NCBI GenBank assembly: GCA_964427615.1
Contig: CAYRUR010000005.1
Coordinates: 15,369 to 79,368, forward strand
Direction of reading: 5' to 3'
Length of the DNA: 64,000 bases
Source of the DNA: an uncultured Gammaproteobacteria bacterium
Lineage (GTDB): Bacteria > Patescibacteriota > Microgenomatia > Levybacterales > GWA1-39-11
The position numbers were made by a program, and so were the translations under genes. Below, one piece after another: positions 9,991 to 26,777 of this stretch (the stretch's first letter is position 1; each line of letters begins with the position of its first letter). The notes beneath the pieces are model-generated. The model ran no database searches. It was not told the DNA's origin and was given only the letters and a program-made list of their open reading frames with translations.

Positions 9991-10038
9991 TCACTCTTTA
10001 GAATTTCGAATTTAGTGCTTAGAATTGAACATTTAACC

Positions 10039-10359: not shown

Positions 10360-10368
10360 TAGTAAAGT

Positions 10369-11337
10369 ATGCGAAAGTTTTTCTATCAGCTCTTTGTTCC
10401 CCATTCACGCAATAACCATAGAGCCAAGGTCCTTCATCATACCAGTATCATAGTACTTACCTTTCTTGTTCTTGCTTTTAGCCTTTTTATTATTAAGGTA
10501 GAACATACTCACCCTAATATTTTAGGCGTTTCCTACTCCATAACTGCTCAAGAATTGTTGGATATCACGAATAAAGATAGAGCAGAAAAAGGTCTACACC
10601 CTCTTGTGTTGAGTGAGAAGCTTTCTAGTGCTGCACGGTGGAAAGCTGACAATATGTTCCAAAATAATTATTGGGCTCATTTTGCTCCAGACGGTACTTC
10701 TCCCTGGGATTTTATTAAAAATTCAGGATACGACTATGCCTATGCAGGAGAAAATTTAGCCAAAGGATTTACCCATTCTGAAGCAGTAGTCAAGGCGTGG
10801 ATGGAATCTGAAAGTCATAGGGAAAATATGTTGTCAGATAAATATAAAGAAGTAGGTTTTGCAATTGTGGAAGGACATTTATTGGGAGAAGAAACAGTAC
10901 TTATTGTAGAAATGTTTGGAGCAGAAGCTGGATCATCTGCTGTTGCTACTTCTCAAAACGCAGCTACTACTCAGCATGTTGCAGCTGCCTCTGTTCCTAC
11001 AAAAGCAGCTGCAGAACCTGTTGCTCCTGTTTCAGCACCGGTTATTACACCTATCGCAAAAGCAGAAGTTGAAAAAAAAGAGAATGTTTTTCGTATGCCT
11101 TCCATCACCTTACCAGCATTGAAAGTAGAATCATCTCCGCTGATTGATGTGGTCTCTATTACAAGGCTAGTAGGTATAGTCGTTTTCTTTATTCTCATAG
11201 CAACTTTTTTGGTGGATTTAGCGGTAGTGGAGAAAAGGAAAATTCCTAGAACAGTTGGTCATAACTTTGATCATATTTTAATTTTGTCTCTTGCTTTAAT
11301 TGTTTTTTTATTGCAAAAGACAGGAGGAATTATTTAA
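10369..11337 (+). CDS. CAP/SCP/PR-1 domain protein with N- and C-terminal TM segments
   Basis: YWAHFAPDGTSPWDFIKNSGYDYAYAGENLAKGF...AWMESESHRENML is CAP-domain-like. Ala/Pro-rich linker, then C-terminal TM. Confidence 0.7.
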   Translation: MRKFFYQLFVPHSRNNHRAKVLHHTSIIVLTFLVLAFSLFIIKVEHTHPNILGVSYSITAQELLDITNKDRAEKGLHPLVLSEKLSSAARWKADNMFQNNYWAHFAPDGTSPWDFIKNSGYDYAYAGENLAKGFTHSEAVVKAWMESESHRENMLSDKYKEVGFAIVEGHLLGEETVLIVEMFGAEAGSSAVATSQNAATTQHVAAASVPTKAAAEPVAPVSAPVITPIAKAEVEKKENVFRMPSITLPALKVESSPLIDVVSITRLVGIVVFFILIATFLVDLAVVEKRKIPRTVGHNFDHILILSLALIVFLLQKTGGII

Positions 11338-11350
11338 AAGTTTGTGGTTT

Positions 11351-11617
11351 ATGAAGAAATTTTTATTACATCATCATCGTTGGTATTTGCTTGAAGTGGT
11401 ATTTTTGTTATTTGGTTTTTTCCTGGTTTATTTATTCTCATATGATGTCTCGTTGCAATTTATGCTCTTAGTCTTTATACTATTGTCGTACATTACAACT
11501 GGCTTTATTCATCATTTTATACATCATGATTTAAAAGCAAAAGTTGTGTTAGAATACGTCTTAATTAGCTTATTGATATTAAGCGCATTCGTATTATTAA
11601 ATAGCTCACGATTATGA
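11351..11617 (+). CDS. small His-rich integral membrane protein (hypothetical)
   Basis: ~88 aa from the ATG at 11351, 2-3 TMs, HHH and HHFIHH clusters. Immediately precedes rmlA. Confidence 0.35.
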   Translation: MKKFLLHHHRWYLLEVVFLLFGFFLVYLFSYDVSLQFMLLVFILLSYITTGFIHHFIHHDLKAKVVLEYVLISLLILSAFVLLNSSRL

Positions 11618-12348
11618 AAGGAATTATATTAGCAGGGGGTAAGGCAACACGATTACGTCCTCTTACCAAAATTACCTCAAAACAATTGCTTCCAATTTAT
11701 AATAAACCTATGATTTTTTATCCAATTAATACGCTTGTAAAAGCAGGGATAAAAGATATCCTTATTATTGTTGCTCCTGATTATGCTGGACATTTTTTGA
11801 ATCTCCTTGGTTCTGGGTCAGAGTTTGGTGCAAAGTTTAGTTATGAAATTCAGGAAGAACCAGCAGGACTCGCTCAGGCATTTCTTATAGGAGAGAATTT
11901 TATCGGAAACGACAATGTTACCATGATTTTAGGAGATAATATTTTTGAGCATGACTTCACTGAAAGTATTGCAAATTTTGAACATGGAGGACGCATCTTT
12001 GCCAAAAAAGTCCCAGATCCTGAGCGATTTGGAGTTGTTGAATTTGATGGACAGAATAAGGTTATCTCAATTGTTGAGAAACCAGAAAAGCCTGCAAGTG
12101 ATTATGCAGTTGTTGGAATCTATATTTATGATAACAATGTTGTTAAATATGCAAAAAGCCTAAAACCATCAGTAAGAGGTGAAATAGAAATCACGGATTT
12201 AAATAATATTTACCTAAAAAATGGTGAGTTAAAAGTGGATATCATAGAAGGACTATGGGAAGATGCGGGAACATTTGATAGTCTTCTTCGTGCAAATAAC
12301 TTAATTGCAGACAAAATAAAAGCAGGTGAAAATTTCTTTAACCTATAG
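11614..12348 (+). CDS. rmlA: glucose-1-phosphate thymidylyltransferase (short form)
   Basis: MKGIILAGGKATRLRPLTKITSKQLLPIYNKPMIFYPI matches the RmlA/RfbA N-terminus. Confidence 0.85.
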   Translation: MKGIILAGGKATRLRPLTKITSKQLLPIYNKPMIFYPINTLVKAGIKDILIIVAPDYAGHFLNLLGSGSEFGAKFSYEIQEEPAGLAQAFLIGENFIGNDNVTMILGDNIFEHDFTESIANFEHGGRIFAKKVPDPERFGVVEFDGQNKVISIVEKPEKPASDYAVVGIYIYDNNVVKYAKSLKPSVRGEIEITDLNNIYLKNGELKVDIIEGLWEDAGTFDSLLRANNLIADKIKAGENFFNL

Positions 12349-12372
12349 AATATAATATTAGAGAAGATAATT

Positions 12373-12846
12373 ATGGAAGAGCAAAAACTTATACAAGGAG
12401 TAGAAATAAAAAAACTGGTAAGACACAGAGATGATAGAGGCTTTTTTGAAGAGCTTATTCGGGTAAGTGATCCTTTTTTTAAAGAAGGTTTTGGACAGTT
12501 ATCTCGGTCTTTAATGTTTCCGGGAGTTATTAAGGCCTGGCATGTACACAAAACACAGATTGATTGGTGGTACTGCGGAAAAGGGACATTAAAAGCAGTG
12601 TTATATGATAATCGTGAAGATTCTCCAACGTACAAAATGCTGCAAGAATTTGATTTGGGAGAAAATGGTGAGGATATGGTCTTAAAAATTCCACCAGGAG
12701 TAGCGCACGGCTGTAAAGTGATGGGTGATAGTGCAGAGCTTTACTATATAACCTCAAAAACGTATGATCCTGAAGAAGAAGGAAGAATTCCCCATGACGA
12801 TCCAAGCATTGGCTATGATTGGCTAAAACACTCGCCAATAAAATAG
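12373..12846 (+). CDS. rmlC: dTDP-4-dehydrorhamnose 3,5-epimerase (cupin)
   Basis: 157 aa with GVEIKKLVRHRDDRGFFEEL and the RmlC-like His/Tyr pattern (KAWHVHK...WWYC). Confidence 0.8.
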   Translation: MEEQKLIQGVEIKKLVRHRDDRGFFEELIRVSDPFFKEGFGQLSRSLMFPGVIKAWHVHKTQIDWWYCGKGTLKAVLYDNREDSPTYKMLQEFDLGENGEDMVLKIPPGVAHGCKVMGDSAELYYITSKTYDPEEEGRIPHDDPSIGYDWLKHSPIK

Positions 12847-12858
12847 TACTCTTTTGTA

Positions 12859-13401
12859 ATGAATACTACTAACATTCTTTCTCAGGAAGTTGTACTCCAG
12901 ACAAAGCTATTTAATGTAATTAAATCTATATTTAAATCTAAAGAGGGTAAAGTTAAAACACATTTTGATATTGAAAGAAGGCCTACGGTATCTATTTTCC
13001 CTATAACTGAAAATTACGAACTATTTCTTATATCTCAATACCGTCCCCTCTATGGAAAGAAAATATTTGAAGGAATCGCTGGGTTTGTGGAATCGGGGGA
13101 GGACATAGCAGATGCAGCAAAGAGAGAGTTACAAGAAGAAACTGGTATTGTTGCAAACAAATGGACTGATTTGGGAATAGTAGATATGTCAGCCAGTGTT
13201 ATAAAAGCTCAATCTCATATTTTCCTTGCGCAAGATTTGGAGTTTGGAGCGGATAATCCTGATGAAGGAGAAGAAATAGAGCTTATAAAAATTCCTTTAG
13301 ATGAGGCAATAGAGAAAGTTATGTCAGGAGAGATTACTGTATCCGTAAGCAAGCTGGGGATACTTATGGTGGATAGATTAAGACAGGAAGGAAAGCTATG
13401 A
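12859..13401 (+). CDS. NUDIX hydrolase
   Basis: Nudix box GFVESGEDIADAAKRELQEETGI. Confidence 0.75.
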   Translation: MNTTNILSQEVVLQTKLFNVIKSIFKSKEGKVKTHFDIERRPTVSIFPITENYELFLISQYRPLYGKKIFEGIAGFVESGEDIADAAKRELQEETGIVANKWTDLGIVDMSASVIKAQSHIFLAQDLEFGADNPDEGEEIELIKIPLDEAIEKVMSGEITVSVSKLGILMVDRLRQEGKL

Positions 13402-13937
13402 GCAAAGTATCTGCTAACTGGAAAAAAGTAAGTGAAAAAATCTTAGTTGATAATAAATACATTTCTATTTGGGAAGAGGATGTCCTGCAGCCAAATGGAA
13501 AAATTGCCACGTATTATGTAAATAGAAGAACGCCATATAGTGTGATTATTCCCATGAAAGGAGACACTCTCTACATGGTAAAGCAATTTAGATATCCGGT
13601 AAATACGATATCACTTGAATTTCCTATGGGGCATGTAGAGGGTAAATCGCCTCTGGAAACAGCACAAATAGAACTTTTAGAAGAGACTGGTATACAAGCA
13701 GGTGAGCTGGTTGAAATTGGCAAATTTTGGGTTGCTCCAGGAAGAAGCAGTCAATGGGCATATGTGTATGTAGCAAAAGATTTGAGTTTTCATGAAGCAC
13801 AGCCTGAGGAGGGAGAGTTTTTTGAACTTGAAAAGTATACTTTTGCCGAAATTAGAGACATGATTGCCAAAGGAAAAATCCTTGACGCTACCAGTATTGT
13901 AGCGTATCATTATCTGGAGAATTACTTAAAGCAATAA
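13398..13937 (+). CDS. NUDIX hydrolase (tandem paralog)
   Basis: Nudix box MGHVEGKSPLETAQIELLEETGI. Overlaps the previous stop by 4 bp. Confidence 0.75.
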   Translation: MSKVSANWKKVSEKILVDNKYISIWEEDVLQPNGKIATYYVNRRTPYSVIIPMKGDTLYMVKQFRYPVNTISLEFPMGHVEGKSPLETAQIELLEETGIQAGELVEIGKFWVAPGRSSQWAYVYVAKDLSFHEAQPEEGEFFELEKYTFAEIRDMIAKGKILDATSIVAYHYLENYLKQ

Positions 13938-13939
13938 TT

Positions 13940-14956
13940 ATGAAATTACTGGTTACCGGAGGAGCAGGTTTTATAGGCTCCAACTTTATTTTGTACTGGA
14001 TGAAGCAACATCCAGAGGATGAAGTGGTAAATCTTGATGCTCTTACCTATGCTGGTAATCTTGAGAACCTTAAAAGCGTAGAAGATAATCCTCACTACAC
14101 CTTTATTCATGCAGATATTACAGATCCAGAAGCAGTGGCAAAAGCAATGGAAGGAATAGATATTGTGGTCCATTTTGCTGCTGAAAGTCATGTGGATAGA
14201 TCTATCCTTGAGCCATTTCCTTTTGTAAAAACAAATGTCTTAGGTACACAAGTGCTGTTGGATGCAGCATTAAAGGCAAATGTAAAACGCTTTCACCATA
14301 TCTCAACTGATGAGGTGTTCGGAACTTTACAATTGGGAAGTCCTGAGCGATTTAGTGAGGCAACTCCCTATGATCCGCGCAGTCCATATGCTGCAAGCAA
14401 AGCAGGGTCAGATCATTTGGTGAGAGCCTATCACGAAACATACGGGTTGCCCATAAGTATCACCAATTGCTCCAATAATTTTGGACCCTATCATTTCCCT
14501 GAAAAATTGATTCCGCTTGCTATTACCAATCTGCTTGAAGGCAAAAAAGTACCGATATATGGAAACGGGATGCAGGTAAGAGATTGGTTGTATGTTGAAG
14601 ACCATGCGCGTGCAGTTGAAGCAGTGCTTTTGAAAGGAAAGATTGGAGAAACGTATGTTGTAGGGGGACAAACAGAGGATATTCCTAATATTGAGGTAGT
14701 AAGAAAGATTATCGCGCTTTTAGGAAAAGACGAAAGTGCTATTGAGCATGTAAAAGATAGACCAGGACATGATGTGCGCTATGCCATGAATTGGACCAAA
14801 ATAAAAACAGAACTTGGATGGGAACCACAGCATGATTTTGATACCTGGCTTGAAAAGACAGTTGAGTGGTATAAAAATAACCAAGACTGGTGGAAAAAAG
14901 TAAAATCAGGAGAATACCAAACATATTACGCAAAAAACTACGGACAGAACATATGA
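13940..14956 (+). CDS. rmlB: dTDP-glucose 4,6-dehydratase
   Basis: MKLLVTGGAGFIGSNF, catalytic YAASKAGSDHLVRAY, 338 aa. Confidence 0.9.
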   Translation: MKLLVTGGAGFIGSNFILYWMKQHPEDEVVNLDALTYAGNLENLKSVEDNPHYTFIHADITDPEAVAKAMEGIDIVVHFAAESHVDRSILEPFPFVKTNVLGTQVLLDAALKANVKRFHHISTDEVFGTLQLGSPERFSEATPYDPRSPYAASKAGSDHLVRAYHETYGLPISITNCSNNFGPYHFPEKLIPLAITNLLEGKKVPIYGNGMQVRDWLYVEDHARAVEAVLLKGKIGETYVVGGQTEDIPNIEVVRKIIALLGKDESAIEHVKDRPGHDVRYAMNWTKIKTELGWEPQHDFDTWLEKTVEWYKNNQDWWKKVKSGEYQTYYAKNYGQNI

Positions 14957-15810
14957 AAATCGCAGTAATTGGAGGAAATGGTCTTGTCGGATCTCGTGTT
15001 GTTGAACTGCTTGAAGATAAATATACCTTTGTTCAATTAAGTAGAACTACTGGTGTTGATATATTACAGCCGGAGACATTAAAAGTGCTAGATGATGCCT
15101 CAATTGATCTTGTGCTGCACATGGCAGCCTATACAAATGTAGATGGGGCAGAGGAGGATAAGGACTTAGGTGAGCAGAGTCAAGCGTGGAAGGTAAATGT
15201 TACCGGTACTAAAAACATTGTAGAAGCATGTTTGAAAGCCAATAAAAAGATAATCTATATCTCAACTGATTTTATTTTTGATGGAGAAAAAGGACGCTAT
15301 ACTGAGGAAGATACTCCAAATCCTGTAAATTGGTATGGTAAGACAAAGTATGAAGGTGAAAACATCGTAAAAGAGTCAGGTTTGAAGTATGTGATTGCCA
15401 GAATTGCATATCCTTACAGAACTGCTTTTGAGAAAAAAGATTTTATGCGAGCGATAAAATCGCGACTTGAGAGTGGACAGACGGTTAAAGCAGTTACGGA
15501 TCATATTTTTACTCCTACTTTTATTGATGATGTTGCCTACGCAATTGAAGCACTTATTATAGGAGAGAAAGAAGGAATATTTCATATAGTGGGAAGCCAA
15601 AGTCTTTCTCCTTATGAGGCTGCTTTAAGGATTGCAGATAGTTTTGGATTGGACAAAAAGTTAATATTTCCGACGACCAGAAAAGAGTATTTTGCCAGTG
15701 GTGCAAAACGTCCCTTTGATCTTTCTTTAGAAAATGGTAAAATAAGAAGTCTTGGAATCAAGATGTCTTCATTTGAAGAAGGACTGGTAGCAGCAAAAAG
15801 ACAATTATGA
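14953..15810 (+). CDS. rmlD: dTDP-4-dehydrorhamnose reductase
   Basis: MKIAVIGGNGLVGSRV Rossmann start at the ATG at 14953 (the track ORF opens at GTG 14890 inside rmlB). ~285 aa, typical of RmlD. Confidence 0.8.
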   Translation: MKIAVIGGNGLVGSRVVELLEDKYTFVQLSRTTGVDILQPETLKVLDDASIDLVLHMAAYTNVDGAEEDKDLGEQSQAWKVNVTGTKNIVEACLKANKKIIYISTDFIFDGEKGRYTEEDTPNPVNWYGKTKYEGENIVKESGLKYVIARIAYPYRTAFEKKDFMRAIKSRLESGQTVKAVTDHIFTPTFIDDVAYAIEALIIGEKEGIFHIVGSQSLSPYEAALRIADSFGLDKKLIFPTTRKEYFASGAKRPFDLSLENGKIRSLGIKMSSFEEGLVAAKRQL

Positions 15811-17099
15811 AAATAACATTTATTGGACATGGCTATGTAGGACTAGTAACTGCAGCTATTTTTGCAGACCTCGGTAACACCGTTTACGTTATTGGACGCA
15901 CCCCCTCAAAGATTGAGAATTTAAAAAAAGGCATTATTCCTATTTATGAGTCAGGATTGGCAGAGATTGTACAAAGAAATGTAGAGGCAGGTAGGCTTCA
16001 GTTTTCTCTTGATTACGAACCTTTTATTCAGGACTCAGAAATTGTATTTACTGCTGTAGGTACTCCTCCTAAAGAAAATGGTGAAGCAAATCTTTCTTTT
16101 GTCATGGAAGTTATTGAAAAGATAGCTAAGAATCTTTCTGGATACACCGTTATTGCTACTAAAAGTACAGTGCCAGTGGGAACTAACAAAGTAGTGCGTG
16201 AAATTATTGAAAAACACAAACCTGCTGATGCAACATATGATATTGCTTCAGTGCCGGAATTTTTACGAGAAGGATCAGCCATTTCTGATACTATGCATCC
16301 TGACAGAATTGTTATAGGAACCGACAGTCAAAAAGCCCAAGATTTATTAGTACAGCTGCACAAACCAATTGATGGAGAACTGGTTCTTACAAATCTTGAA
16401 ACAGCAGAGATGATTAAGTATGCTGCTAACTCTTTCCTGGCTACTAAAATTTCATTTGCCAATGCAATTGCAGAACTATCAGAACGGGTAGGTGCTGATG
16501 CATTAAAGGTTATGGAAGGCATTGGCGTTGATAAAAGAATCGGAAAATTATTCTTACAGCCTGGAGCAGGCTACGGTGGAAGCTGTTTTCCAAAAGATGT
16601 GAAAGCCCTGATTGCAATTGCAAAACAAAATGGCTATGACTTCAAGCTCCTTGAAGAAGTTGAAGAAATCAATGCTGCTGCACGAGAAAAAATTGTTAAA
16701 AAAATAGAATCAGCAGTAGGAGACCTGAAAGGAAAGAACATTGGTGTATTAGGTCTGGCTTTCAAACCTGACACTGATGACATGCGGGATGCTCCTTCAA
16801 TCACCATTATCCATGCACTGAAAGAAAAAGGTGCATATGTAAAAGCCTATGACCCTCAAGCTGCTGAGAATGCAAAGCTGGTAATCAATGGAGTTGATGA
16901 GTATGCTGAGAATATGTATGAAGCTGTACAGGATGCTGATGCCATGGTAGTAGTTACTGACTGGAATGAATTTAAGGAAATCGATTTTGAGAAAGTAAAG
17001 CACGCCATGCGCTCTCCTATTGTTATTGATGGAAGAAACATCTATGAACCTGAGCAAATGAAAGAACGAGGGTTTGCATACCAAGGTGTTGGCAGATAA
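15807..17099 (+). CDS. ugd: UDP-glucose 6-dehydrogenase
   Basis: MKITFIGHGYVGLVTAAIFADLGN; catalytic Cys region GGSCFPKDV; 430 aa. Confidence 0.85.
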   Translation: MKITFIGHGYVGLVTAAIFADLGNTVYVIGRTPSKIENLKKGIIPIYESGLAEIVQRNVEAGRLQFSLDYEPFIQDSEIVFTAVGTPPKENGEANLSFVMEVIEKIAKNLSGYTVIATKSTVPVGTNKVVREIIEKHKPADATYDIASVPEFLREGSAISDTMHPDRIVIGTDSQKAQDLLVQLHKPIDGELVLTNLETAEMIKYAANSFLATKISFANAIAELSERVGADALKVMEGIGVDKRIGKLFLQPGAGYGGSCFPKDVKALIAIAKQNGYDFKLLEEVEEINAAAREKIVKKIESAVGDLKGKNIGVLGLAFKPDTDDMRDAPSITIIHALKEKGAYVKAYDPQAAENAKLVINGVDEYAENMYEAVQDADAMVVVTDWNEFKEIDFEKVKHAMRSPIVIDGRNIYEPEQMKERGFAYQGVGR

Positions 17100-18050
17100 G
17101 TGAGTAAAAAAGTCTTTATTACCGGTATTACAGGATTTGCAGGGAGTTTCCTCTCAGAATATCTTTTAACCAAAGGATATACAGTTGCCGGAGTTGTTCG
17201 TCCTCACACTCAAGAAAATAAGCAGCTCAAAAATGTTACCTATTTTGAAGCAGATTTACTCGATTCTTCCTCGACTGCTGCTATTATCTCTGAATATAAG
17301 CCGGATTTTGTGTATCACTTAGCGGCACTTTCTTCTCCAGCAGAAAGTTTTCAGCACCCTGCCAGTACTCTGACAAATAATATAACTGCTGAAGTTAATG
17401 TGCTTGAGGCACTACGTAAAAACAATCTATTACAGACAAAAGTGCTCGTTGTATCATCAGGAGAAATATATGGAGCAGTTGCATCTCAGGACTTACCCGT
17501 GAATGAGCAAGTATCTTTAAAACCTATGAGTCCGTATGGTGTTTCAAAAATTACCCAAGATTTTCTGGGGTTACAATACTTTCTCTCTTACAAGATGCCA
17601 ATTGTACGTGTGAGGCCTTTTAATCATATTGGACCACGTCAAACTGCTCATTTTGTAGTGGCTGCTTTTGCCAAACAAATTGCAGAAATTGAAAAAGGGA
17701 AAAAAGAGGCGGTATTAAAAGTGGGTAATTTAGAGGCAAAACGGGATTTTACTGATGTACGAGATATTGTAAGAGCGTATGAGTTGGTACTAACAAAGGG
17801 AAAAGCAGGAGAAGTATATAATATCGGATCTGGCAAGTCATACAAGATTGCTGATATTTTAGAGGGTTTGCTCCAGTTATCAAAAGTTACTATCACTATT
17901 GAAAAAGATCAGAAATTACTGCGACCCAGTGATATTCCTGAAATTGTTTGTGATAACACAAAAATACAGCAGGAAACAGGATGGAAACCTGAAATAACAC
18001 TTGATGAATCGCTCAAAGATGTCCTAGACTATTGGAGAAATATTGTTTAA
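17100..18050 (+). CDS. NAD-dependent GDP-4-keto-6-deoxy-D-mannose reductase-like (Rmd/Gmd-like short-chain dehydrogenase)
   Basis: GTG start. VFITGITGFAGSFLSEYLL, YGVSK catalytic dyad, 316 aa, immediately upstream of gmd. Confidence 0.6.
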   Translation: MSKKVFITGITGFAGSFLSEYLLTKGYTVAGVVRPHTQENKQLKNVTYFEADLLDSSSTAAIISEYKPDFVYHLAALSSPAESFQHPASTLTNNITAEVNVLEALRKNNLLQTKVLVVSSGEIYGAVASQDLPVNEQVSLKPMSPYGVSKITQDFLGLQYFLSYKMPIVRVRPFNHIGPRQTAHFVVAAFAKQIAEIEKGKKEAVLKVGNLEAKRDFTDVRDIVRAYELVLTKGKAGEVYNIGSGKSYKIADILEGLLQLSKVTITIEKDQKLLRPSDIPEIVCDNTKIQQETGWKPEITLDESLKDVLDYWRNIV

Positions 18051-19034
<984 letters not shown>

Positions 19035-19098
19035 AGCTTGTATCATTTCTACACCAGACAGATATAGTACACATCATGCAAATGTTTAGATTTCTCCT

Positions 19099-20052
19099 AT
19101 GAGTAACATTATTATTACAGGCGGTGCAGGATTTATTGGGTCACATCTTTGTAAAAGATTATTATCTGAAGGTCATACCGTAGTGTGCGTTGATAATCTG
19201 TTGACTGGATCCAAAAAAAATATTGAAAATCTGCTTTCTGACAAGAATTTTTCTTTTCTCAATCACGATGTAACGCAGCCACTTCCTGATTCTTTGCAAG
19301 CTGATGCAATTTTTCATATGGCTTCTCCTGCTTCTCCAAATCATCATAGTAATATCAGTTACCATGCTCTTCCTATGGAAACCATGATGGTAAATACGCT
19401 TGGTACTTTGGAATTATTAAAATTTGCTCAAAAGAAGAATGCCAAATTTCTTTTTGCTTCTACCTCAGAAGTATATGGCGATCCTCAAGTACATCCGCAA
19501 CCTGAGGATTATAATGGGAATGTCTCCACCACCGGTCCTCGTTCTGTGTATGATGAAGCTAAACGATTTGGCGAAACGCTTGTCGCTCATTTTGTCCGAA
19601 ATGGTCTTGATGGACGTATTGTCCGCATTTTTAATACCTATGGGCCAAATATGCAAAAAGAGGATATGCGCATGATTGTACGTTTTATTATCCAATCATT
19701 ACACAATGAGCCTATCACTGTATTTGGAGATGGTACACAAACCCGTTCTTTATGCTTTGTGGATGACCTAATAGAAGGGTTGGTACGCTTGATGTTCTAT
19801 CCAAATACCAAAGGAGAAATTGTGAATTTGGGAAGCAGCAATGAACATACAGTACTAGAGTATGCTCAGATAGTTAAAAAATTGACCAATTCAGAAAGTG
19901 AGATTGTATTAAGTGAAGGACTTCCTCAGCATGATCCTCTGAAAAGAAGGCCTGATACCACAAAGGCTAAAAAACTGCTAGAATGGGAAGAGTCTACGCC
20001 TCTTGAGGAAGGATTACAGAAAACAATTGAGTATGTCAAAACAATAATATGA
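19099..20052 (+). CDS. uxs: UDP-glucuronate decarboxylase (UDP-xylose synthase)
   Basis: IIITGGAGFIGSHLCKRLLSEGHTVVCVDNLLTGSKKNIENL...NHDVTQPL is a UXS/ArnA-decarboxylase-type SDR. Lies downstream of ugd. Confidence 0.85.
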   Translation: MSNIIITGGAGFIGSHLCKRLLSEGHTVVCVDNLLTGSKKNIENLLSDKNFSFLNHDVTQPLPDSLQADAIFHMASPASPNHHSNISYHALPMETMMVNTLGTLELLKFAQKKNAKFLFASTSEVYGDPQVHPQPEDYNGNVSTTGPRSVYDEAKRFGETLVAHFVRNGLDGRIVRIFNTYGPNMQKEDMRMIVRFIIQSLHNEPITVFGDGTQTRSLCFVDDLIEGLVRLMFYPNTKGEIVNLGSSNEHTVLEYAQIVKKLTNSESEIVLSEGLPQHDPLKRRPDTTKAKKLLEWEESTPLEEGLQKTIEYVKTII

Positions 20053-21176
20053 AAGTCGTAGTTATTTCTCCTACTTATAATGAAAAAGTGAATATGGAAA
20101 GAATGATTCCGATATTGGAGGAAAAAGTGTTTCCAAAAATAAAAAATCATGACATGTTTTTGTTGGTTGCAGATGATAATTCTCCTGATGGGACAGCAGA
20201 TGTAGTGAAAAAATACAAAAAGCAATGGAAAAATATAGTCTTGCTAGAAGGAGAGAAAAAAGGATTGGGTGCAGCTTATGTAAAAGCAATGCGTTATGCT
20301 TCAAAAGAAATGAAAGCGGATGCGGTTATTGAATTTGATGCTGATTTTCAGCATGATCCTTATGATATTCCAAGATTGGTGGAGGCAATGGACAAGGGGT
20401 ATGATTATGTAATTGGTAGTCGGTATGTAAAAGGAGGCAAGATCCCAGCCGAGTGGGGAATTCATCGTAAATTTATGAGTTTTTTCGGTAGTTTATTTGC
20501 TCGTATTGTGTTATTTACTCCTTTTATTAATGACATGACCTCAGGATTTAAACTAACAAAAACAGCATTTTTGGATAGAGTGGATCTGGAAAATCTTTAC
20601 TCCAAATACTATGCGTACAAAATTCAGATTTTATACGAAGTAGTCAAAAAAGGAGCAAAAGTAAAAGAAGTACCTATTATCTTTTACGAAAGAAAAGAAG
20701 GATCTAGTAAGATAAGTCAAAAAGATTTATTTGATTCATTTTTAGTTGTTTTAAAGCTAAGAGTAAGAGACTCAAAAAAATTTGTCAAATTTCTGGTAGT
20801 TGGAGGGACAGGCTTTTTAATCAATACCGTTATTTATACTACACTTGCTCATCACACAGATATAAATTTGGTGCTTGCCAATACCATTGGTGCTGAGATG
20901 GCTATTTTTTCTAATTTTAACCTTAATAACGTCTGGACATTTGGTAAAAGGAAAGAGCATAAATTTAATGGTTATTTTAGAAAAATGGGTATGTTTTTTG
21001 CTACTTCAAATATTGGCGTGTGGTTATTTCAAAATGGTGCGATTGCTTTAGGAAGCGCATTATATGGAAGAACACACTACTTAATTTATTTTTTGATCGG
21101 GACTTCAATTTTACTTGTTTGGAATTTTACGATTTATAGCAAATTTATTTGGCGAGAGAAGGCTGCAATAATCTAA
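20049..21176 (+). CDS. polyprenyl-phosphate sugar synthase-like GT2 glycosyltransferase fused to a C-terminal GtrA-family membrane domain
   Basis: N-terminal GT-A (VISPTYNEKVNMERM...ADDNSPDGTADVV, DAD motif). C-terminal 4-TM GtrA signature (FLVVGGTGFLINTVIY; NFNLNNVWTF; WNFTIYSKFIW). Confidence 0.75.
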   Translation: MKVVVISPTYNEKVNMERMIPILEEKVFPKIKNHDMFLLVADDNSPDGTADVVKKYKKQWKNIVLLEGEKKGLGAAYVKAMRYASKEMKADAVIEFDADFQHDPYDIPRLVEAMDKGYDYVIGSRYVKGGKIPAEWGIHRKFMSFFGSLFARIVLFTPFINDMTSGFKLTKTAFLDRVDLENLYSKYYAYKIQILYEVVKKGAKVKEVPIIFYERKEGSSKISQKDLFDSFLVVLKLRVRDSKKFVKFLVVGGTGFLINTVIYTTLAHHTDINLVLANTIGAEMAIFSNFNLNNVWTFGKRKEHKFNGYFRKMGMFFATSNIGVWLFQNGAIALGSALYGRTHYLIYFLIGTSILLVWNFTIYSKFIWREKAAII

Positions 21177-21186
21177 AACCCTTCGT

Positions 21187-22761
21187 ATGCATACCGTATT
21201 ATCAGTAGTAAAAAAAAAGTACGAGATAATTCTCCTTGCTGTTATCCTCTTAGTTGCTTCTTTTTGGAGGCTTTACCGAATTGGTGATTATTTGACATTT
21301 TTGGGAGATGAGGGAAGAGATGTACTAGTTGTAAGAGGTATTCTACATGGAGACTTAACGCTTTTGGGACCCCGTGCTTCCGCTGGAGACTTTTTTACAG
21401 GCCCTATTTACTACTACATGATGACTCCTTTTTTGTGGTTATTTAACTATGATCCAGTTGGTCCGGCAGTAATGGTGGCATTACTGGGTATTGCAACTGT
21501 TTTCTTAGTTTATTACATCAGTAAAAAATTCTTTGGTACGAATGCAGGTTTGATAGCAGCTGCTTTATATGCCATTTCTCCTCTCATTGTGACTTATTCC
21601 CGTTCTTCTTGGAATCCAAATCCCATGCCGTTTTTTTCTCTTGTAATTATTTTACTACTGTACAAAGGGGTAAAGGAGGGTTCATGGAAAATAATGGGTA
21701 TAACAGGATTATTATTTGGAATTGCTTTTCAACTGCATTATATAGAACTCTTTTTTGCTGTATTTATGGCATTATTTTTCTTCATCGGATCGTATATTGT
21801 CGAGAAAAAAGGTCTTATAAAGCGGTTATTGGTACAGAGTATTGTGACAATGGGAGGTTTTTTAGTTGGGTTTTCTCCATTTTTAGCATTTGAAGTAAGG
21901 CATGGATTTCCTAATACAAGAACTATTTTTTCCTTTATTTTGTCCGGAACTTCCGATAATGAAAAAGCTCAGGTTGCGTCCTTTTTCCAAATAGTACCTG
22001 ATGTTTTTGTTAATTTTTTTGCCCGTACCTTACTTTATTTTCCGGGTGCTAATAATATGGCACATTTTCCTGAATGGCAGCTTACCGTATGGAAGGCAGC
22101 AGCAGTAGTAGTAGCTGTTGCCGGGATTATAGCTTTGTTTAAGACAAAAGATACATTAGTAAAACTATTGTTGTTTTTGTGGTTGGTAGTAGGTGTGGGG
22201 TTATTTGGCTTTTATAAAAAACCTATTTATGATTACTATTTTGCTTTTATGTTTCCATTACCATTTATATTAGTAGGCAATTTTTTTGCTCGGATTTTTG
22301 AAAATAAAACAGTTCCACTCATTATAAAAGCAGCGAGTATGGGTATTGTTTTGTTTTTGATTGGTTTAAATCTATCAGGATTTCCATTTCAACATGAACC
22401 GAATAAGCAAAAGGATCAAATGAAGCAGATTGCTGAGTTTGTGATGGACAAAGCTGGTGGAAAGCCATTTAACTTTGCCTTAATTACCGGAGGAAATTCT
22501 GATCATGCATATCGCTATTATTTTGAATTAAAGGATAGAACCCCGGTAACTATAGAGAACCCTGAAATAGATCCTGAAAGAAAAACGGTAACAGACCAGT
22601 TATTTGTGGTTTGTGAAAGTCTTCCTTGTGCACCCTTGGGTCATCCGTTATGGGAGATTGCTGGATTTGGTAGTGCAACTATCTCAGCCGAGTGGGATGT
22701 GTCAGTAGTAGAGATATACAAATTGACTCCCTATAAAAATGAAGGTGAAACTAATGAATAA
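21187..22761 (+). CDS. GT-C fold glycosyltransferase (ArnT/PMT-like, GT39/GT83-type), polyprenyl-phosphate-sugar dependent
   Basis: 524 aa, ~11 TMs. First extracytoplasmic loop has the DE motif (FLGDEGRDVLVVRG), as in ArnT and PMT families. Confidence 0.7.
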   Translation: MHTVLSVVKKKYEIILLAVILLVASFWRLYRIGDYLTFLGDEGRDVLVVRGILHGDLTLLGPRASAGDFFTGPIYYYMMTPFLWLFNYDPVGPAVMVALLGIATVFLVYYISKKFFGTNAGLIAAALYAISPLIVTYSRSSWNPNPMPFFSLVIILLLYKGVKEGSWKIMGITGLLFGIAFQLHYIELFFAVFMALFFFIGSYIVEKKGLIKRLLVQSIVTMGGFLVGFSPFLAFEVRHGFPNTRTIFSFILSGTSDNEKAQVASFFQIVPDVFVNFFARTLLYFPGANNMAHFPEWQLTVWKAAAVVVAVAGIIALFKTKDTLVKLLLFLWLVVGVGLFGFYKKPIYDYYFAFMFPLPFILVGNFFARIFENKTVPLIIKAASMGIVLFLIGLNLSGFPFQHEPNKQKDQMKQIAEFVMDKAGGKPFNFALITGGNSDHAYRYYFELKDRTPVTIENPEIDPERKTVTDQLFVVCESLPCAPLGHPLWEIAGFGSATISAEWDVSVVEIYKLTPYKNEGETNE

Positions 22762-23047
22762 AGAAAGCAAAGAGTTGATCGCGGAACAAGTAAATAATTG
22801 CGTTGAGTAGTAAGATAAATCCTGAAGCTACCAGCGTGTGTTTTATATCTTTTCTCACATAACGAATTGACTGTTCAACAGCAGCAGGGATAGAAGCGTT
22901 TGTAGAAACTTGCTCCACTTTTGGCACAACTTTTTTGGGAAGAGTATAGGTAGGGGTAACAAAGGGTTTTTCTTCTTGTGTCTTCTCAATTTCTCGTTTT
23001 AAGTCTGTGTGTATCTTTTGTTTCTTCGTTTTCTTCTTTTTACTCAT
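22751..23047 (-). CDS. hypothetical Lys-rich tail-anchored membrane protein
   Basis: 98 aa, K-rich N-terminus, C-terminal TM. Overlaps the 3' end of the GT-C gene by 11 bp. Could be spurious. Confidence 0.3.
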   Translation of the reverse strand: MSKKKKTKKQKIHTDLKREIEKTQEEKPFVTPTYTLPKKVVPKVEQVSTNASIPAAVEQSIRYVRKDIKHTLVASGFILLLNAIIYLFRDQLFAFFIH

Positions 23048-23103
23048 GTACCCAAAGTATCATATTGACAGTAACCAAGTCAAGAGAATACAATTATCAA
23101 TAT

Positions 23104-23577
23104 ATGAATCTGGATCCCCAATTTTTTCTATTAATTATCTCCTTAGTGTGGTCTTTGGTTCTTACTGTGTTGTTTGTAAAGTTCTATTTTTATTATTCCC
23201 GACTTACGAAAGAAGGAAAAAAAGAATCCCTGATTCAAGTTATTGATACAGTACTGGCAAAAGAAGATGTATTGGAGAAAAAAATAGACGAGTTAGTAAA
23301 GCAGTGTACTAAATTAGAAGAAGAAGGAAAGTTATATGTACAAAAAATTGGGTTGATCCGGTTTAATCCTTTTCAGGACACAGGAGGAGACCAAAGTTTT
23401 ATTTTAGCACTGGTTGATGCAAATGATACTGGCGTAGTTATTTCAAGTCTTCATACCAGAAGTGGTACACGCTGGTATGCCAAGAAAGTGACAGGCGGAA
23501 AAGGGATAGAGCATAATTTATCTGAAGAAGAAAAGAAAGCAATTAAAGAAGCTTTATCTTTGAAGAATACTGCATAA
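23104..23577 (+). CDS. DUF4446-like membrane protein
   Basis: Start at MNLDPQFF (ATG 23104). N-terminal TM, then LIRFNPFQDTGGDQSFILALVDANDTGVVISSLHTRSGTRWYAKKV. Confidence 0.55.
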   Translation: MNLDPQFFLLIISLVWSLVLTVLFVKFYFYYSRLTKEGKKESLIQVIDTVLAKEDVLEKKIDELVKQCTKLEEEGKLYVQKIGLIRFNPFQDTGGDQSFILALVDANDTGVVISSLHTRSGTRWYAKKVTGGKGIEHNLSEEEKKAIKEALSLKNTA

Positions 23578-23600
23578 TCATTTATAATAGGGAAGCGTTT

Positions 23601-24770
23601 ATGAAGAATAAAAATCTTTTTATAACTGGTATCGTTGTTTACTTGGTTAGTGCTTTGGTTGCTTATTTTCTGTTCTCTAACTTGTTTTCTTCCGGAACCC
23701 TCATGACTTCTCCTGTTCCTCCTCCCAAAGTCGGCAGTGATGGAAAACTTGTTTTTGATGATTCTTTACCTAAGACAGAAAGTTGTCCGCTAAATGGAGC
23801 TATGTATTCCAAACAACAGCGTCAATGGTGGGAACAGCACAGACCTTTAGGAGTAATGATTGAAAACCATGAAGAATCACGTCCACAGTCAGGTTTATCA
23901 GCCACTGATATTGTTTTTGAAACAGTAGCAGAAGGCGGTATCACTCGATTTTTGGCAGTATTTTATTGTCAGGACGCTCCTATTGTAGGACCAGTACGCT
24001 CTGCACGCACCTACTTTCTTGACTTTATCTCAGGGTTTGGCAGTAGTCCACTCTACGCTCACGTAGGAGGAGCGAATACGCCTGGTCCAGCTGATGCTTT
24101 GGGACAAATCGATTCCTATGGATGGGCAGGCTACAATGACATGAATCAATTCTCTATAGGTTTTCCGATTTTTTGGAGAGACTATGATAGACTAGGCAGA
24201 ACAGTTGCTACAGAACATACTATGTATTCGTCTACCTCTAAACTATGGGAGCTGGCAAAAAAAAGAGGTTTAACAGATACAGATAAAAAAGGTAATAAAT
24301 GGGATGAAGATTTTACTCCTTACACCTTTAAAGAGGATGCAGAAGCCTCAAAAAGACCTGCTTCTCAGATAATAAATCTTAGCTTCTGGAGCGGATATGG
24401 AGACTACGCGGTAAAATGGGAGTACAAAAAAGATACAAATAATTACGTACGTTCAAATGGTGGAGTGTCTCACACAGATAAAAATAATAATAGCCAGTTG
24501 TCTGCCAAGAATATTGTGATATTATACATGGAAGAAAGCAGAGCAAATGACGGGTATCCAGGAAATGTACACTTACTGTATGATACAAAAGGAAGTGGAG
24601 ATGCTGTAGTATTTATGGATGGGAAAAGAGTACGGGCAACCTGGTCAAAGCCAAAGAGGACTTCAAAATTGGTGATAAAGGATACAGCAGGAAAAGAGAT
24701 AGCCTTTAATAAGGGAAGAATTTGGTTTACAATTCTGGATACAGCAAATGATTCCTTAACTGTAAAATAA
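23601..24770 (+). CDS. DUF3048 (YerB-like) secreted/membrane-anchored protein
   Basis: RPQSGLSATDIVFETVAEGGITRFLAVFYCQ...VGPVRSARTYFLDF matches the DUF3048 N-terminal domain. 389 aa. Confidence 0.6.
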   Translation: MKNKNLFITGIVVYLVSALVAYFLFSNLFSSGTLMTSPVPPPKVGSDGKLVFDDSLPKTESCPLNGAMYSKQQRQWWEQHRPLGVMIENHEESRPQSGLSATDIVFETVAEGGITRFLAVFYCQDAPIVGPVRSARTYFLDFISGFGSSPLYAHVGGANTPGPADALGQIDSYGWAGYNDMNQFSIGFPIFWRDYDRLGRTVATEHTMYSSTSKLWELAKKRGLTDTDKKGNKWDEDFTPYTFKEDAEASKRPASQIINLSFWSGYGDYAVKWEYKKDTNNYVRSNGGVSHTDKNNNSQLSAKNIVILYMEESRANDGYPGNVHLLYDTKGSGDAVVFMDGKRVRATWSKPKRTSKLVIKDTAGKEIAFNKGRIWFTILDTANDSLTVK

Positions 24771-24818
24771 ACTTCTCTTGCTTGCCAAGAGGCAGGTGAG
24801 CATGGCAGGATAAGTTAT

Positions 24819-25397
24819 ATGTTAGAAGATCTTATTACATCAAAAACAAGAGTAAAAGTATTGTACACTTTTTTAGAAAATCCTTCTGAAATGTACCATG
24901 TTCGGGAGATAGTCAGAAGAGTGGATGAAGAAATCAATGCGGTAAGGCGTGAATTGATCTTCCTTGAAAAAAAAGGAGTTTTACAAAAAGAACCTCGGGC
25001 AAATAGAGTCTATTATTCCTTCGATAAAAGCTATCCTTTTTTACATGACTTACTACGAATTTACCTCAAATCAAAGGGATTAGCAGCTGATATCTTAAAA
25101 AACAAAGTTAAACTCGGTAAAATAAAATTTGCTATGTTAGCGGGAAAGTATGTGAGGGGATTTGAAAATGCAAAAGCTGAAGAAGTTGATTTATTAGTAG
25201 TTGGGAAAGTAGTGCTTCCCGAATTGGCGGTACTAGTCAGAAAAGAAGAAGCAAAAAGAGGAGTTGAAATTAATTACACGGTAATGCAGGAGGATGAGTT
25301 TGATTTTAGGAAAAAAAGACTTGATCCTTTTATTTCCTCCATTATTTATGGTCCTCGAATTATGGTCATGGGAGAGGAGACTGCGTTACTAGCGTAA
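24819..25397 (+). CDS. winged-helix DNA-binding domain fused to a minimal nucleotidyltransferase (Pol-beta superfamily)-like domain
   Basis: N-terminal wHTH (LYTFLENPSEMYHVREIVRRV). Central AGKYVRGFENAKAEEVDLLVVG resembles the GS-x9-13-D(I/V)DLLV MNT nucleotidyltransferase motif. Confidence 0.45.
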   Translation: MLEDLITSKTRVKVLYTFLENPSEMYHVREIVRRVDEEINAVRRELIFLEKKGVLQKEPRANRVYYSFDKSYPFLHDLLRIYLKSKGLAADILKNKVKLGKIKFAMLAGKYVRGFENAKAEEVDLLVVGKVVLPELAVLVRKEEAKRGVEINYTVMQEDEFDFRKKRLDPFISSIIYGPRIMVMGEETALLA

Positions 25398-25409
25398 GGA
25401 GGGATAGTT

Positions 25410-26777
25410 GTGAAAAAGCCTACTATTTTTGTTGGAATTATTTTTTTTGTTTCAATACTCTTATTTTTTGCTGTTTTACCACAGGGTCTAAAATTGCCAG
25501 GTTTTAAACTTCCTTTTTTGAATCAAGAGGTAAACCTTAATTTCTCACAAATTGATATTAACGCAGGGCCTTTACATATTCAAAAAAACTTTGATTACCG
25601 TTTGGGTTTGGATTTACAGGGTGGGACACGACTCACCTATGACGTAGACATGTCAGAGGTGGAATCAGATAAAAGAGATGCAGCTTTTGAGTCTGTCAGA
25701 AACGTAATTGAGCGGCGGGTTAATTTTTTTGGCGTAACAGAGCCTACTATCCAAACAGTAAAGGTATCTGATGATTATCGAGTGGTTGTGGAACTCCCAG
25801 GAACAACAAATGTAGAAGAAGCAATTAGTCTCATTGGAAAAACGGCACAGTTATCATTTTGGGAGTCAAATCCTGCAGCAACAGAAGCTGCTGAGCAAGC
25901 AACTCCTTCCTCCTTACTGGATTTCCAATTAGCTCAAGTGTTAGGCGCAAATCCTCAAAAAACAAAGTTAACAGGACGAGATCTAAAACAGGCACAAGTA
26001 ACGTTTAATCAACAGACAGGAGAGCCACAAGTATTGCTTACTTTCACTCCTGAAGGAACAAAGCTCTTTGCAGATATAACCAAAAGAAATGTTGGTAAGC
26101 CCGTGGCAATTGCACTTGATGAACAAGTAATTCAGGCACCAGTGGTGAATGAGCCAATCTTAAATGGAAGTGCGGTTATTTCAGGTGGGTATGATACTAC
26201 TGCTGCAAAAAATGTAGTAATTCAGTTAAATGCTGGAGCATTACCTGCTCCCTTACATATTATTGCACAAAGCACAGAAGGACCAAGTCTGGGGTTGGAA
26301 GCTTTGAAGAAAAGTGCTTTTGCTGGAGCGATAGGATTTATAACCATTCTTTTGTTTATGAGTTATTTGTATAAAAAAGAAGGGCTACTTGCTTCTGTGG
26401 CTTTGATTATTTATGTGTTAATCAATTTGTTTGTTTTTAAGTTTTTCTCTATTACTCTGACATTGGCAGGTATTGCCGGATTTATTCTTTCAGTAGGTAT
26501 GGCAGTGGATGCAAATATTTTGATATTTGAAAGAATGAAAGAGGAACTACGTGCTGGAAAATCCTTAGATGTAGCCAGAAAAATCGGGTTTAAACGAGCT
26601 TGGACTTCTATCAGGGATTCAAATGTTACCAGTATTATTGTCTCTTTGATTTTATTTTACTTTGGTACCGGTATTGTGAGAGGCTTTGCTATTGTGCTAT
26701 TAATTGGTATTGTAGTCTCTATGTTCTCAGCCATTGTGGTAACGCGTAATTTGTTGGCAGTATTTGATAATAAATAG
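25410..26777 (+). CDS. secD: protein translocase subunit SecD
   Basis: LGLDLQGGTRLTYDV; large periplasmic domain plus 6 C-terminal TMs. Confidence 0.9.
   Translation: MKKPTIFVGIIFFVSILLFFAVLPQGLKLPGFKLPFLNQEVNLNFSQIDINAGPLHIQKNFDYRLGLDLQGGTRLTYDVDMSEVESDKRDAAFESVRNVIERRVNFFGVTEPTIQTVKVSDDYRVVVELPGTTNVEEAISLIGKTAQLSFWESNPAATEAAEQATPSSLLDFQLAQVLGANPQKTKLTGRDLKQAQVTFNQQTGEPQVLLTFTPEGTKLFADITKRNVGKPVAIALDEQVIQAPVVNEPILNGSAVISGGYDTTAAKNVVIQLNAGALPAPLHIIAQSTEGPSLGLEALKKSAFAGAIGFITILLFMSYLYKKEGLLASVALIIYVLINLFVFKFFSITLTLAGIAGFILSVGMAVDANILIFERMKEELRAGKSLDVARKIGFKRAWTSIRDSNVTSIIVSLILFYFGTGIVRGFAIVLLIGIVVSMFSAIVVTRNLLAVFDNK

Follow-up and report, generated by a model that had tools for sequence, protein, structure and literature searches.

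A nucleotide-sugar gene cluster of a Levybacteria-type Patescibacterium ends in a DPMS-type GT2–GtrA protein and a GT-C glycosyltransferase

The dolichyl-phosphate-mannose synthase (DPMS) of Pyrococcus furiosus (PfDPMS), a type-III enzyme, provides a structural reference for lipid-linked sugar synthesis: Asp39 contacts the guanine of the donor, Asp89 the mannose O2, His94 the mannose O3, and Arg117 and Lys178 O6/O4; Asp91 and Gln93 bind the metal; and the acceptor phosphate is held by Arg117, Arg131 and Ser135, with Arg202 and Lys208 in the gating loop (PMC5526996). The end of the donor motif differs with the donor, reading DADLQD in GtrB (UDP-Glc), DADLQN in ArnC (UDP-Ara4FN) and DADLQH in PfDPMS (GDP-Man) (PMC12690121). 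A 2026 survey found type-III DPMS only in hyperthermophilic archaea, and flipping of the product by the GtrA-like domain is only suggested crystallographically, for PfDPMS (PMC12992685). Here, we report an analysis of 64,000 nucleotides of contig CAYRUR010000005.1 (positions 15,369–79,368; hereafter the window), in which a sugar-precursor gene cluster ends in a GT2 glycosyltransferase fused to a GtrA-like membrane domain (20049–21176) and a GT-C glycosyltransferase (21187–22761). A preliminary description of this DNA had proposed an Arn-like module that uses UDP-xylose to make a lipid-linked pentose. We find that the GT2 protein resembles PfDPMS in architecture and in its donor contacts, and we lean towards a reading, moderately probable in our view, in which the operon would end in a DPMS-type GT2 and GT-C pair with polyprenyl-phosphate-mannose as the product of the former.

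The GT2 protein comprises a catalytic domain (about residues 1–235; PF00535, E 1e-24) followed by a four-helix GtrA-like membrane domain (residues 247–368) that matches PF04138 (GtrA/DPMS_TM) over profile positions 1–117 of 117 (E 7e-16, 58.8 bits against a cut-off of 26.1), as the proposed fusion of a GtrA-family domain to a GT2 had it. Its alignment with PfDPMS (5mlz) begins at residue 1 and extends into the final membrane helix (132 bits, E 3e-37), compared with 35 bits for ArnC and 26 bits for GtrB, and the NCBIfam ArnC model reaches 43 bits against a cut-off of 529. The AF2 model (pLDDT 88) shows four long C-terminal helices, and its top Foldseek match is again PfDPMS 5mlz (E 3e-22), followed by ArnC (5e-15) and GtrB (2e-12). 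Ranks 1–25 consist of these three enzymes and contain no processive synthases, which disposes of a grouping with cytoplasmic polysaccharide synthases that had been named as a possible outcome. These matches place the protein in the polyprenyl-phosphate glycosyltransferase class. The idea that GT2–GtrA is a new fusion was rejected, the architecture being that of type-III DPMS.

The active-site residues (D43, D97-A-D99-F-Q101-H102, S124-R125-Y126, R140, S144, K191, R215, K221, N259, N289 and N359) include equivalents of all the listed PfDPMS contacts, namely D43, D97, D99, Q101, H102, R125, K191, R140, S144, R215 and K221. The donor motif is DADFQH, with His at the donor-variable position as in PfDPMS, and the base-binding loop KKGLG is close to KEKGLS of PfDPMS, whereas ArnC has RNYGQH. 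Asn248 and Asn277, which form the polar pocket proposed for the flipped mannose, correspond to N259 and N289; the Asn277 equivalent is invariant in 70 of 70 aligned sequences from the candidate phyla radiation (CPR), and PfDPMS position 341 is Asn in the window GT2, as in non-Thermococcales type-III DPMS. Judging from D43, D97, H102 and K191, GDP-mannose would be the most likely donor, and a GDP-mannose pool in the cell is implied because gmd is encoded in the operon.

More than 6,500 database relatives match the GT2 at E 1e-10 or better, and all the relatives among the matches listed combine PF00535 with PF04138. The GT2 plus GtrA-like DPMS architecture is thus common in mesophilic bacteria and not restricted to archaea. 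Homologs of the GT2 and of the GT-C number in the thousands each; those with names belong to Patescibacteria, mainly Levybacteria.

The GT-C protein matches PF13231 (PMT_2) with 56 bits against a 26-bit cut-off. Searches of all solved structures with the single sequence and with a 47-sequence profile returned nothing even at E 10, so it can be placed by fold comparison only. Its first Foldseek match is ArnT, over the full length (E 2e-8, TM 0.62/0.60). The modelled fold is confident and ArnT-, oligosaccharyltransferase (OST)- or protein mannosyltransferase (PMT)-like; of the earlier ArnT/PMT-like label, the ArnT resemblance stands as the top fold match, and a robust assignment to one family does not. 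By sequence it falls outside the GT39 PMTs, with no PF02366 match and no solved PMT recovered by sequence or profile; a few of its homologs carry a precomputed PF02366 match. Across 47 homologs, G40-D41-E42-G43-R44-D45 is invariant directly after the first membrane helix, as are C476 and C481 in a C-terminal alpha/beta domain of about 100 amino acids. A DE motif in loop 1 is a hallmark of GT-C and PMT enzymes (PMC8698208). The loop-1 motif D41-E42 is also common to GT-C families other than PMT, and its invariance fits an extracytoplasmic GT-C active site.

The two genes close a cluster of twelve, which comprises the following features.

11614–12348, + strand: cluster gene 1, rmlA-like glucose-1-phosphate thymidylyltransferase, short form, 244 amino acids (PF00483, E 7e-64; TIGR01207, 310 bits, below the 360-bit cut-off)
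12373–12846, + strand: rmlC-like dTDP-4-dehydrorhamnose 3,5-epimerase (PF00908, E 1e-23; TIGR01221, 64 bits, below cut-off)
12859–13401 and 13398–13937, + strand: two tandem NUDIX hydrolase genes (PF00293, E 5e-15 and 2e-11; weak NudE-like matches)
13940–14956, + strand: rmlB, dTDP-glucose 4,6-dehydratase (TIGR01181, 485 bits, above the 365-bit cut-off)
14953–15810, + strand: rmlD, dTDP-4-dehydrorhamnose reductase (PF04321, E 3e-63, match from residue 22)
15807–17099, + strand: ugd, UDP-glucose 6-dehydrogenase (three UDPG_MGDP_dh domains; TIGR03026)
17100–18050, + strand: rmd-like GDP-6-deoxy-D-lyxo-4-hexulose reductase, for GDP-D-rhamnose synthesis (similar to 2pk3 and 6x3b)
18063–19034, + strand: gmd, GDP-mannose 4,6-dehydratase (TIGR01472, 449 bits, above the 415-bit cut-off)
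19099–20052, + strand: uxs, UDP-glucuronate decarboxylase (UDP-xylose synthase) (human UXS1 4gll/2b69 and motifs)
20049–21176, + strand: GT2 polyprenyl-phosphate glycosyltransferase of DPMS type-III architecture (PF00535 and PF04138; full-length PfDPMS match)
21187–22761, + strand: GT-C glycosyltransferase, PMT_2 family, 524 amino acids (PF13231)

The preliminary description had seen six genes in a row, from ugd to the GT-C. The listing of open reading frames (ORFs) contains these six at exactly those coordinates, all co-directional, and profile searches bear out their family calls (Ugd, two GDP-deoxyhexose enzymes, UXS, GT2–GtrA and GT-C); the extent has to be revised, as six further genes on the same strand precede them in a 12-gene cluster that starts at rmlA (11614–22761). 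Gaps between the rmlA to rmlD genes and ugd are at most 65 nt, several junctions are ATGA overlaps, and a 277-nt gap lies 5′ of rmlA; the operon most likely extends over 11614–22761. The last two genes had been said to overlap or abut. They are indeed closely spaced, 10 nt apart and without overlap, and the 4-nt overlap (ATGA, 20049–20052) is that of uxs and the GT2 gene. The rmlD ORF is listed from a GTG at 14890; its Met at codon 22 is the ATG at 14953, which is probably the start. Scans of 9800–25500 gave chance-level results for promoters (57 sites versus 48±7 in shuffles) and for terminators (10 versus 9.9±3.7), the best promoter-like site of the region (23065–23094, 11/12) lying just 3′ of the GT-C gene. 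The scans speak neither for nor against co-transcription, which leaves gene spacing as the remaining evidence.

The cluster encodes routes to four activated sugars (dTDP-L-Rha, UDP-GlcA, GDP-D-Rha and UDP-Xyl) and just two transferases. Ugd matches each of the three UDPG_MGDP_dh domains (E values from 2e-59 to 1e-35), scores 465 bits with TIGR03026 (cut-off 190 bits) and matches TuaD/NDP-sugar dehydrogenase models. The short-chain dehydrogenase/reductase (SDR) at 17100–18050 has GDP-6-deoxy-D-lyxo-4-hexulose reductase (2pk3, 270 bits) as its best solved relative, with 197 bits to the GDP-6-deoxy-D-mannose reductase 6x3b, and Gmd passes the equivalog cut-off of its model. The UXS protein scores 327 bits with human UXS1 (4gll/2b69; E 8e-97); the next best family reaches at most 132 bits, the UDP-GlcA 4-epimerase 6zl6 126 bits, dTDP-glucose dehydratases at most 99 bits and the ArnA model 84 bits. 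Its ASTSEVYGDP and YDEAKR motifs align column for column with those of human UXS1 (T-S-E-V-Y-G and Y-D-E-x-K-R). On this similarity, 19099–20052 encodes a genuine UDP-glucuronate decarboxylase and not a 4-epimerase, the alternative identity that might have undone the earlier call.

Pfam searches of window ORFs of at least 120 amino acids found no aminotransferase, formyltransferase or deformylase, in agreement with the preliminary description, and no further GT2, GT-C or other glycosyltransferase; the other ORFs belong only to housekeeping families, a class A penicillin-binding protein, a sortase, SecDF and similar proteins. Nor does the 64 kb contain a Leloir glycosyltransferase, an initiating phosphoglycosyl transferase, a polymerase or a glycan exporter, so the enzymes that consume UDP-Xyl, UDP-GlcA, dTDP-Rha and GDP-D-Rha must have their genes outside the window. 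Leloir transferases with genes in other parts of the genome, and not the GT2, are the probable recipients of the sugars made by UXS, Ugd, Gmd/Rmd and RmlABCD.

The proximity of uxs to the GT2 gene suggests another donor: Ugd and UXS would supply UDP-xylose (or an epimer) to the GT2, and polyprenyl-phosphate-xylose would be flipped by the GtrA-like domain and used by the GT-C. The decarboxylase is genuine, Ugd in the same operon makes its substrate, the uxs stop overlaps the GT2 start, and other chemistries offer known cases of lipid-linked pentose donors that serve GT-C transferases (PMC11127046). However, the GT2 has His102, as in DPMS, and Lys191 in the place of the mannose-contacting Lys178, where the ArnC and GtrB forms differ, and the known three-component pentose systems pair PRPP-type synthases with MATE flippases, not GT2 with GtrA (PMC11127046). 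Both the PRPP-dependent/MATE system and the Arn enzyme set are absent here. Our literature search found no paper on a polyprenyl-phosphate-xylose donor.

We therefore turned to gene neighbourhoods for evidence of a coupling between uxs and the GT2/GT-C pair. A genome scan yielded 80 loci, nearly all from Levybacteria or other Microgenomates (numbered with an L below), to which the window proteins were mapped by tblastn; each locus spans 10 kb on either side, and the absence of uxs holds for the locus only. Levybacteria conserve an order of 16 genes in all, which runs from a CAP-domain gene through rmlA, (NUDIX), rmlB, rmlD, ugd, rmd, gmd, uxs, GT2 and GT-C to DUF4446, DUF3048, a 192-amino-acid ORF, secD and secF. 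Because this synteny takes in genes unrelated to glycosylation, such as those for SecDF and DUF3048, the uxs–GT2 order, found in most Levybacteria loci, cannot be separated from it and is no evidence for a specific link. Three Levybacteria loci (L013, L018 and L044) keep gmd–GT2–GT-C and lack uxs beside the pair, as do all the non-Levybacteria loci, including the Curtissbacteria loci L048 and L054 (rmlABCD-ugd-rmd-gmd-GT2-GT-C). Besides the window itself, 13 Levybacteria loci and 10 non-Levybacteria loci that lack uxs have a GT2 with the window-type signature (DADxQH plus Lys). With housekeeping divergence controlled, GT2 and UXS distances are uncorrelated (r 0.13, p 0.11).

The neighbourhood conservation expected earlier thus holds for the whole gene order within Levybacteria and fails for a specific coupling to uxs. 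The lipid-linked pentose from UDP-xylose fares poorly, given the DPMS donor motif, the 132 bits to PfDPMS against 35 and 26 to ArnC and GtrB, and the confinement of uxs adjacency to Levybacteria, and we consider UDP-xylose an unlikely donor; of the original proposal, the lipid-carrier glycosylation logic survives (a GT2 that matches PfDPMS and a GT-C fold with a DE motif) and the pentose does not. Still less probable is that a DPMS-type GT2 was recruited in Levybacteria for UDP-xylose, with xylose placed onto a wall polymer or Pro/Thr-rich surface proteins by the ArnT-shaped GT-C. A polyprenyl-phosphate-xylopyranose donor, if real, would define a lipid-linked pentose route distinct from Arn and from the PRPP-based pentofuranose systems.

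The syntenic GT2 position is itself variable, with at least four subtypes: DADFQH plus Lys (the window form), DADLQH plus Gln, DADFQF and DADFFH. Human DPM1 has Ser and Gln at the Gln93 and Lys178 positions. Subtypes with Gln for Lys178 or Ser for Gln93 need not differ in specificity, and we make no claim of this kind. We dropped the idea that the locus is a rapidly swapping 'serotype' determinant, since GT2 subtypes mostly follow phylogeny. In about one-third of Levybacteria loci (L002, L004, L007, L026, L028–L030, L033–L035, L039, L040, L042 and L059), the + strand gmd (73–81% identical to that of the window) gives way, at about 6.5–7.8 kb in each locus, to a divergent gmd on the opposite strand (47–53%), which amounts to the local replacement of one gene in an operon whose synteny is otherwise kept. 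Identities of UXS, RmlA and RmlD are also bimodal across the Levybacteria loci.

The presence of gmd and rmd in the operon raises GDP-D-rhamnose (6-deoxy-mannose) as a third donor, with polyprenyl-phosphate-D-rhamnose as the product for the GT-C. A GDP-binding, mannose-configured pocket would accept the 6-deoxy analogue, and gmd lies directly upstream of the GT2 gene where uxs is absent (L013, L018, L044, L048, L054, L050 and L071). Against this, gene order is largely inherited synteny, and we know of no lipid-linked D-rhamnose donor. Moreover, the Curtissbacteria-type GT2s encoded after gmd no longer have the guanine-binding Asp39, which is replaced by Ser, so adjacency to gmd does not track a GDP-type pocket. 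We regard this donor as quite improbable.

A further question is whether the GT2 and the GT-C act together. In every one of the 40 or more Levybacteria loci, as well as in Curtissbacteria L054, their genes are direct neighbours on the same strand, about 10–160 nt apart, and their distances correlate weakly and significantly when housekeeping divergence is controlled (partial Mantel r 0.24, p 0.001). Alternatively, inherited order only would have made them neighbours: the GT2 would fill a general polyprenyl-phosphate-sugar pool for several GT-C paralogs, and the GT-C might draw its donor from another synthase. In Collierbacteria and Woesebacteria, the related GT-C shows translational coupling with another GT2, a short one of 238 amino acids, and the GT2–GtrA gene lies 2 kb off, across an opposite-strand gene and beside further GT2/GT-C arrays. 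Columns of the GT-C alignment that track GT2 active-site subtype are fewer (0.8%) than in the SecD, DUF3048 and SecF controls (2–4%), and so give no sign of co-specialisation. The conserved adjacency, the distance correlation and the lack of any other GT2 or GT-C in the 64-kb window argue for a partnership, and we hold mere neighbourhood to be rather unlikely.

These Collierbacteria and Woesebacteria loci contain whole arrays of lipid-linked glycosylation genes (L062, 5707–14199; L064, 6956–15997; L070, 2623–13077), in which GT2–GtrA is followed by a 371-amino-acid opposite-strand gene and by the 238-amino-acid short GT2 coupled to two GT-C genes, the array ending with a further GT2 (253 amino acids) and two more PMT_2 GT-C genes.

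Several observations weigh against polyprenyl-phosphate-mannose as the product and against the pairing with the GT-C. The identity of the GT2 to PfDPMS, 32% over 351 amino acids (BLASTP), is insufficient to read donor specificity with certainty, and the residues corresponding to R117, R131 and R202 are common to all polyprenyl-phosphate glycosyltransferases, whatever the donor (PMC12690121). The strict definition of type-III DPMS comprises DADxQHPP (x = L, F or Y), SRY, Arg131, Ser135, Lys178, Asn248/Asn277 and Phe338, with Tyr allowed at the last (PMC12992685). SRY, Arg131, Ser135 and Lys178 have their counterparts here (S124-R125-Y126, R140, S144 and K191). The extended motif departs from it, reading D97-A-D-F-Q-H-D-P104 with Asp in place of P95, and the gating Phe338 is replaced by Leu356. 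No mannose-1-phosphate guanylyltransferase was found within the window. The adjacency of uxs, which lies directly upstream of the GT2 gene in about 45 of 48 Levybacteria loci, and its ATGA stop–start overlap with that gene resemble those of a donor-supply gene. No GT-C alignment columns track the GT2 active-site subtype, and the direct evidence of a GT2/GT-C partnership is limited to adjacency and a weak distance correlation. The CPR relatives L061 and L070 do carry DADFQHPP. We expect the window GT2 to work like a type-III DPMS while standing outside the narrowly defined published set.

With polyprenyl-phosphate-mannose as the favoured product, the pathway would run as follows. The first ten genes would make soluble dTDP-L-rhamnose, UDP-glucuronate, GDP-D-rhamnose and UDP-xylose. 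At the cytoplasmic face, the GT2 would take mannose from GDP-mannose and attach it to polyprenyl phosphate, as its conserved donor and acceptor contacts suggest, and the fused GtrA-like four-helix domain may help to flip the product. The GT-C, with a predicted catalytic Asp-Glu pair in its first external loop, would then hand the single sugar on to an extracytoplasmic acceptor, a role consistent with its fold and motif.

Two kinds of acceptor suggest themselves by analogy. The rhamnose genes of the operon make a rhamnose-containing wall polysaccharide a candidate, which could be decorated like the side chains of streptococcal and lactococcal polymers. The other candidate acceptors are Pro/Thr-rich linkers in secreted proteins, of which the window encodes three (7617–8474, 6261–7475 and 47887–48522); actinobacterial O-mannosylation by Ppm1/Pmt (PMC5882110) and the streptococcal systems GtrB/PgtC2 and PgfS/PgfM1 (PMC12041528) provide precedents for protein acceptors. 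The protein at 7617–8474 has a Lamin-tail domain and TPTPTPTP repeats, and 62402–63724 encodes a 440-amino-acid protein with long Ser/Gly runs. All four of these secreted or membrane-anchored proteins with low-complexity linkers are candidate O-glycosylation substrates. Our literature search on mannosyltransferases in CPR bacteria returned only annotation-level mentions.

The host is a Levybacteria-type Patescibacterium (CPR). A sortase gene (42131–42790) and the Patescibacteria affiliation of all close homologs fit the earlier description of the host as a likely monoderm. Levybacteria-type syntenic loci also occur in many MAG records titled 'uncultured Gammaproteobacteria bacterium' or 'uncultured Pseudomonadales bacterium' (L001, L007, L010, L012, L016, L017, L020, L025, L028, L030 and others), 'Candidatus Limnocylindrales' (L006) and 'Candidatus Eisenbacteria' (L023), labels that look wrong.

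Other features of the window stand apart from the glycosylation genes proper. The two NUDIX genes sit between rmlC and rmlB, inside the rhamnose genes, and may encode nucleotide-sugar hydrolases; at least one copy recurs at the same place in many Levybacteria loci. A 98-amino-acid ORF on the − strand (22751–23047), which has no Pfam match and lies between the GT-C and DUF4446 genes, has a counterpart among the gene calls of an independent Logan contig with an identical locus (L081). Between the GT-C gene and secDF, 22978–25397 encodes DUF4446, DUF3048 (N- and C-terminal domains) and a family-less 192-amino-acid ORF, as in nearly all Levybacteria loci; the listed GTG of DUF4446 is probably not its start, which the Logan gene call of 143 amino acids would place further downstream. 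Further along are a NOX-like protein that joins FAD and NAD domains to a ferric-reductase-like membrane domain (38919–40217) and a family-A DNA polymerase of 496 amino acids with the polymerase domain only (48696–50186). Rfam and tRNA scans of the window gave no match.

The gene set represents an ordinary case of a mechanism already known, from a group of bacteria that is poorly studied; known mechanisms are unchanged, and what it offers is correct annotation and a testable question of donor specificity. The genomes of Patescibacteria are tiny, and these bacteria live attached to other cells. That this lineage nevertheless conserves an 11-kb operon for four activated sugars and a lipid-linked glycosylation pair indicates that surface glycans probably matter for the integrity of the envelope or for contact with the host. 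The wide occurrence of the GT2–GtrA architecture in CPR bacteria also bears on the idea that a membrane domain flips the lipid-linked sugar.

Comparison with known systems highlights which features are shared. With the Arn pathway the locus has in common Ugd and a UDP-GlcA decarboxylase of the SDR family of the ArnA C-terminal domain, a polyprenyl-phosphate GT2, and a GT-C whose best Foldseek match is ArnT. In contrast to that pathway, the window lacks a formyltransferase, an aminotransferase, a deformylase and ArnE/F; it has a UXS of the eukaryote-like type, UXS1 (327 bits, versus 84 to the ArnA model); its GT2 is closer to DPMS than to ArnC (132 versus 35 bits), has H and not N in the donor motif, and possesses four membrane helices where ArnC has two; and there is no evidence of lipid A for the host. 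'Arn-like' is a loose analogy only.

The GtrB/GtrA/GT-C systems (CsbB/GtcA/YfhO, GacI/GacL, GtrB/PgtC2 and PgfS/PgfM1) encode the same three functions, and each component has a counterpart here: a GT2 with acceptor-phosphate residues R125, R140 and S144, a GtrA module, and a GT-C fold with a loop-1 acidic motif. In the window, however, the GtrA module and the synthase form one fused protein, the synthase belongs to the DPMS clade and not to the UDP-sugar GtrB/CsbB clade, and the GT-C has a PMT_2/ArnT-like shape rather than that of YfhO or Gtr* proteins. The actinobacterial Ppm1/Pmt pathway (Streptomyces, Mycobacterium and Corynebacterium) likewise combines a polyprenyl-phosphate-mannose synthase with a GT-C that carries DE in loop 1, in a monoderm-type envelope, and modifies Ser/Thr/Pro-rich regions of secreted proteins, such as are encoded in the window. 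It differs in that Ppm1 has no GtrA-like domain; the window GT-C, for its part, has no detectable similarity to solved PMTs and matches PF13231 only, not PF02366.

The closest relative of the GT2 protein is the type-III DPMS of P. furiosus (5mlz, 5mm0, 5mm1 and 9ep0). The window protein differs in its bacterial (CPR), presumably mesophilic host, in having DADFQHDP for DADxQHPP and Leu for the gating Phe338, and in its carrier, which would be a bacterial polyprenyl phosphate and not dolichyl phosphate. Both proteins combine a GT2 domain, two interface helices and a four-helix GtrA-like domain in one polypeptide, and the window GT2 keeps DADxQH, SRY and the equivalents of R131, S135, K178, R202, K208, N248 and N277, together with an Asn at position 341.

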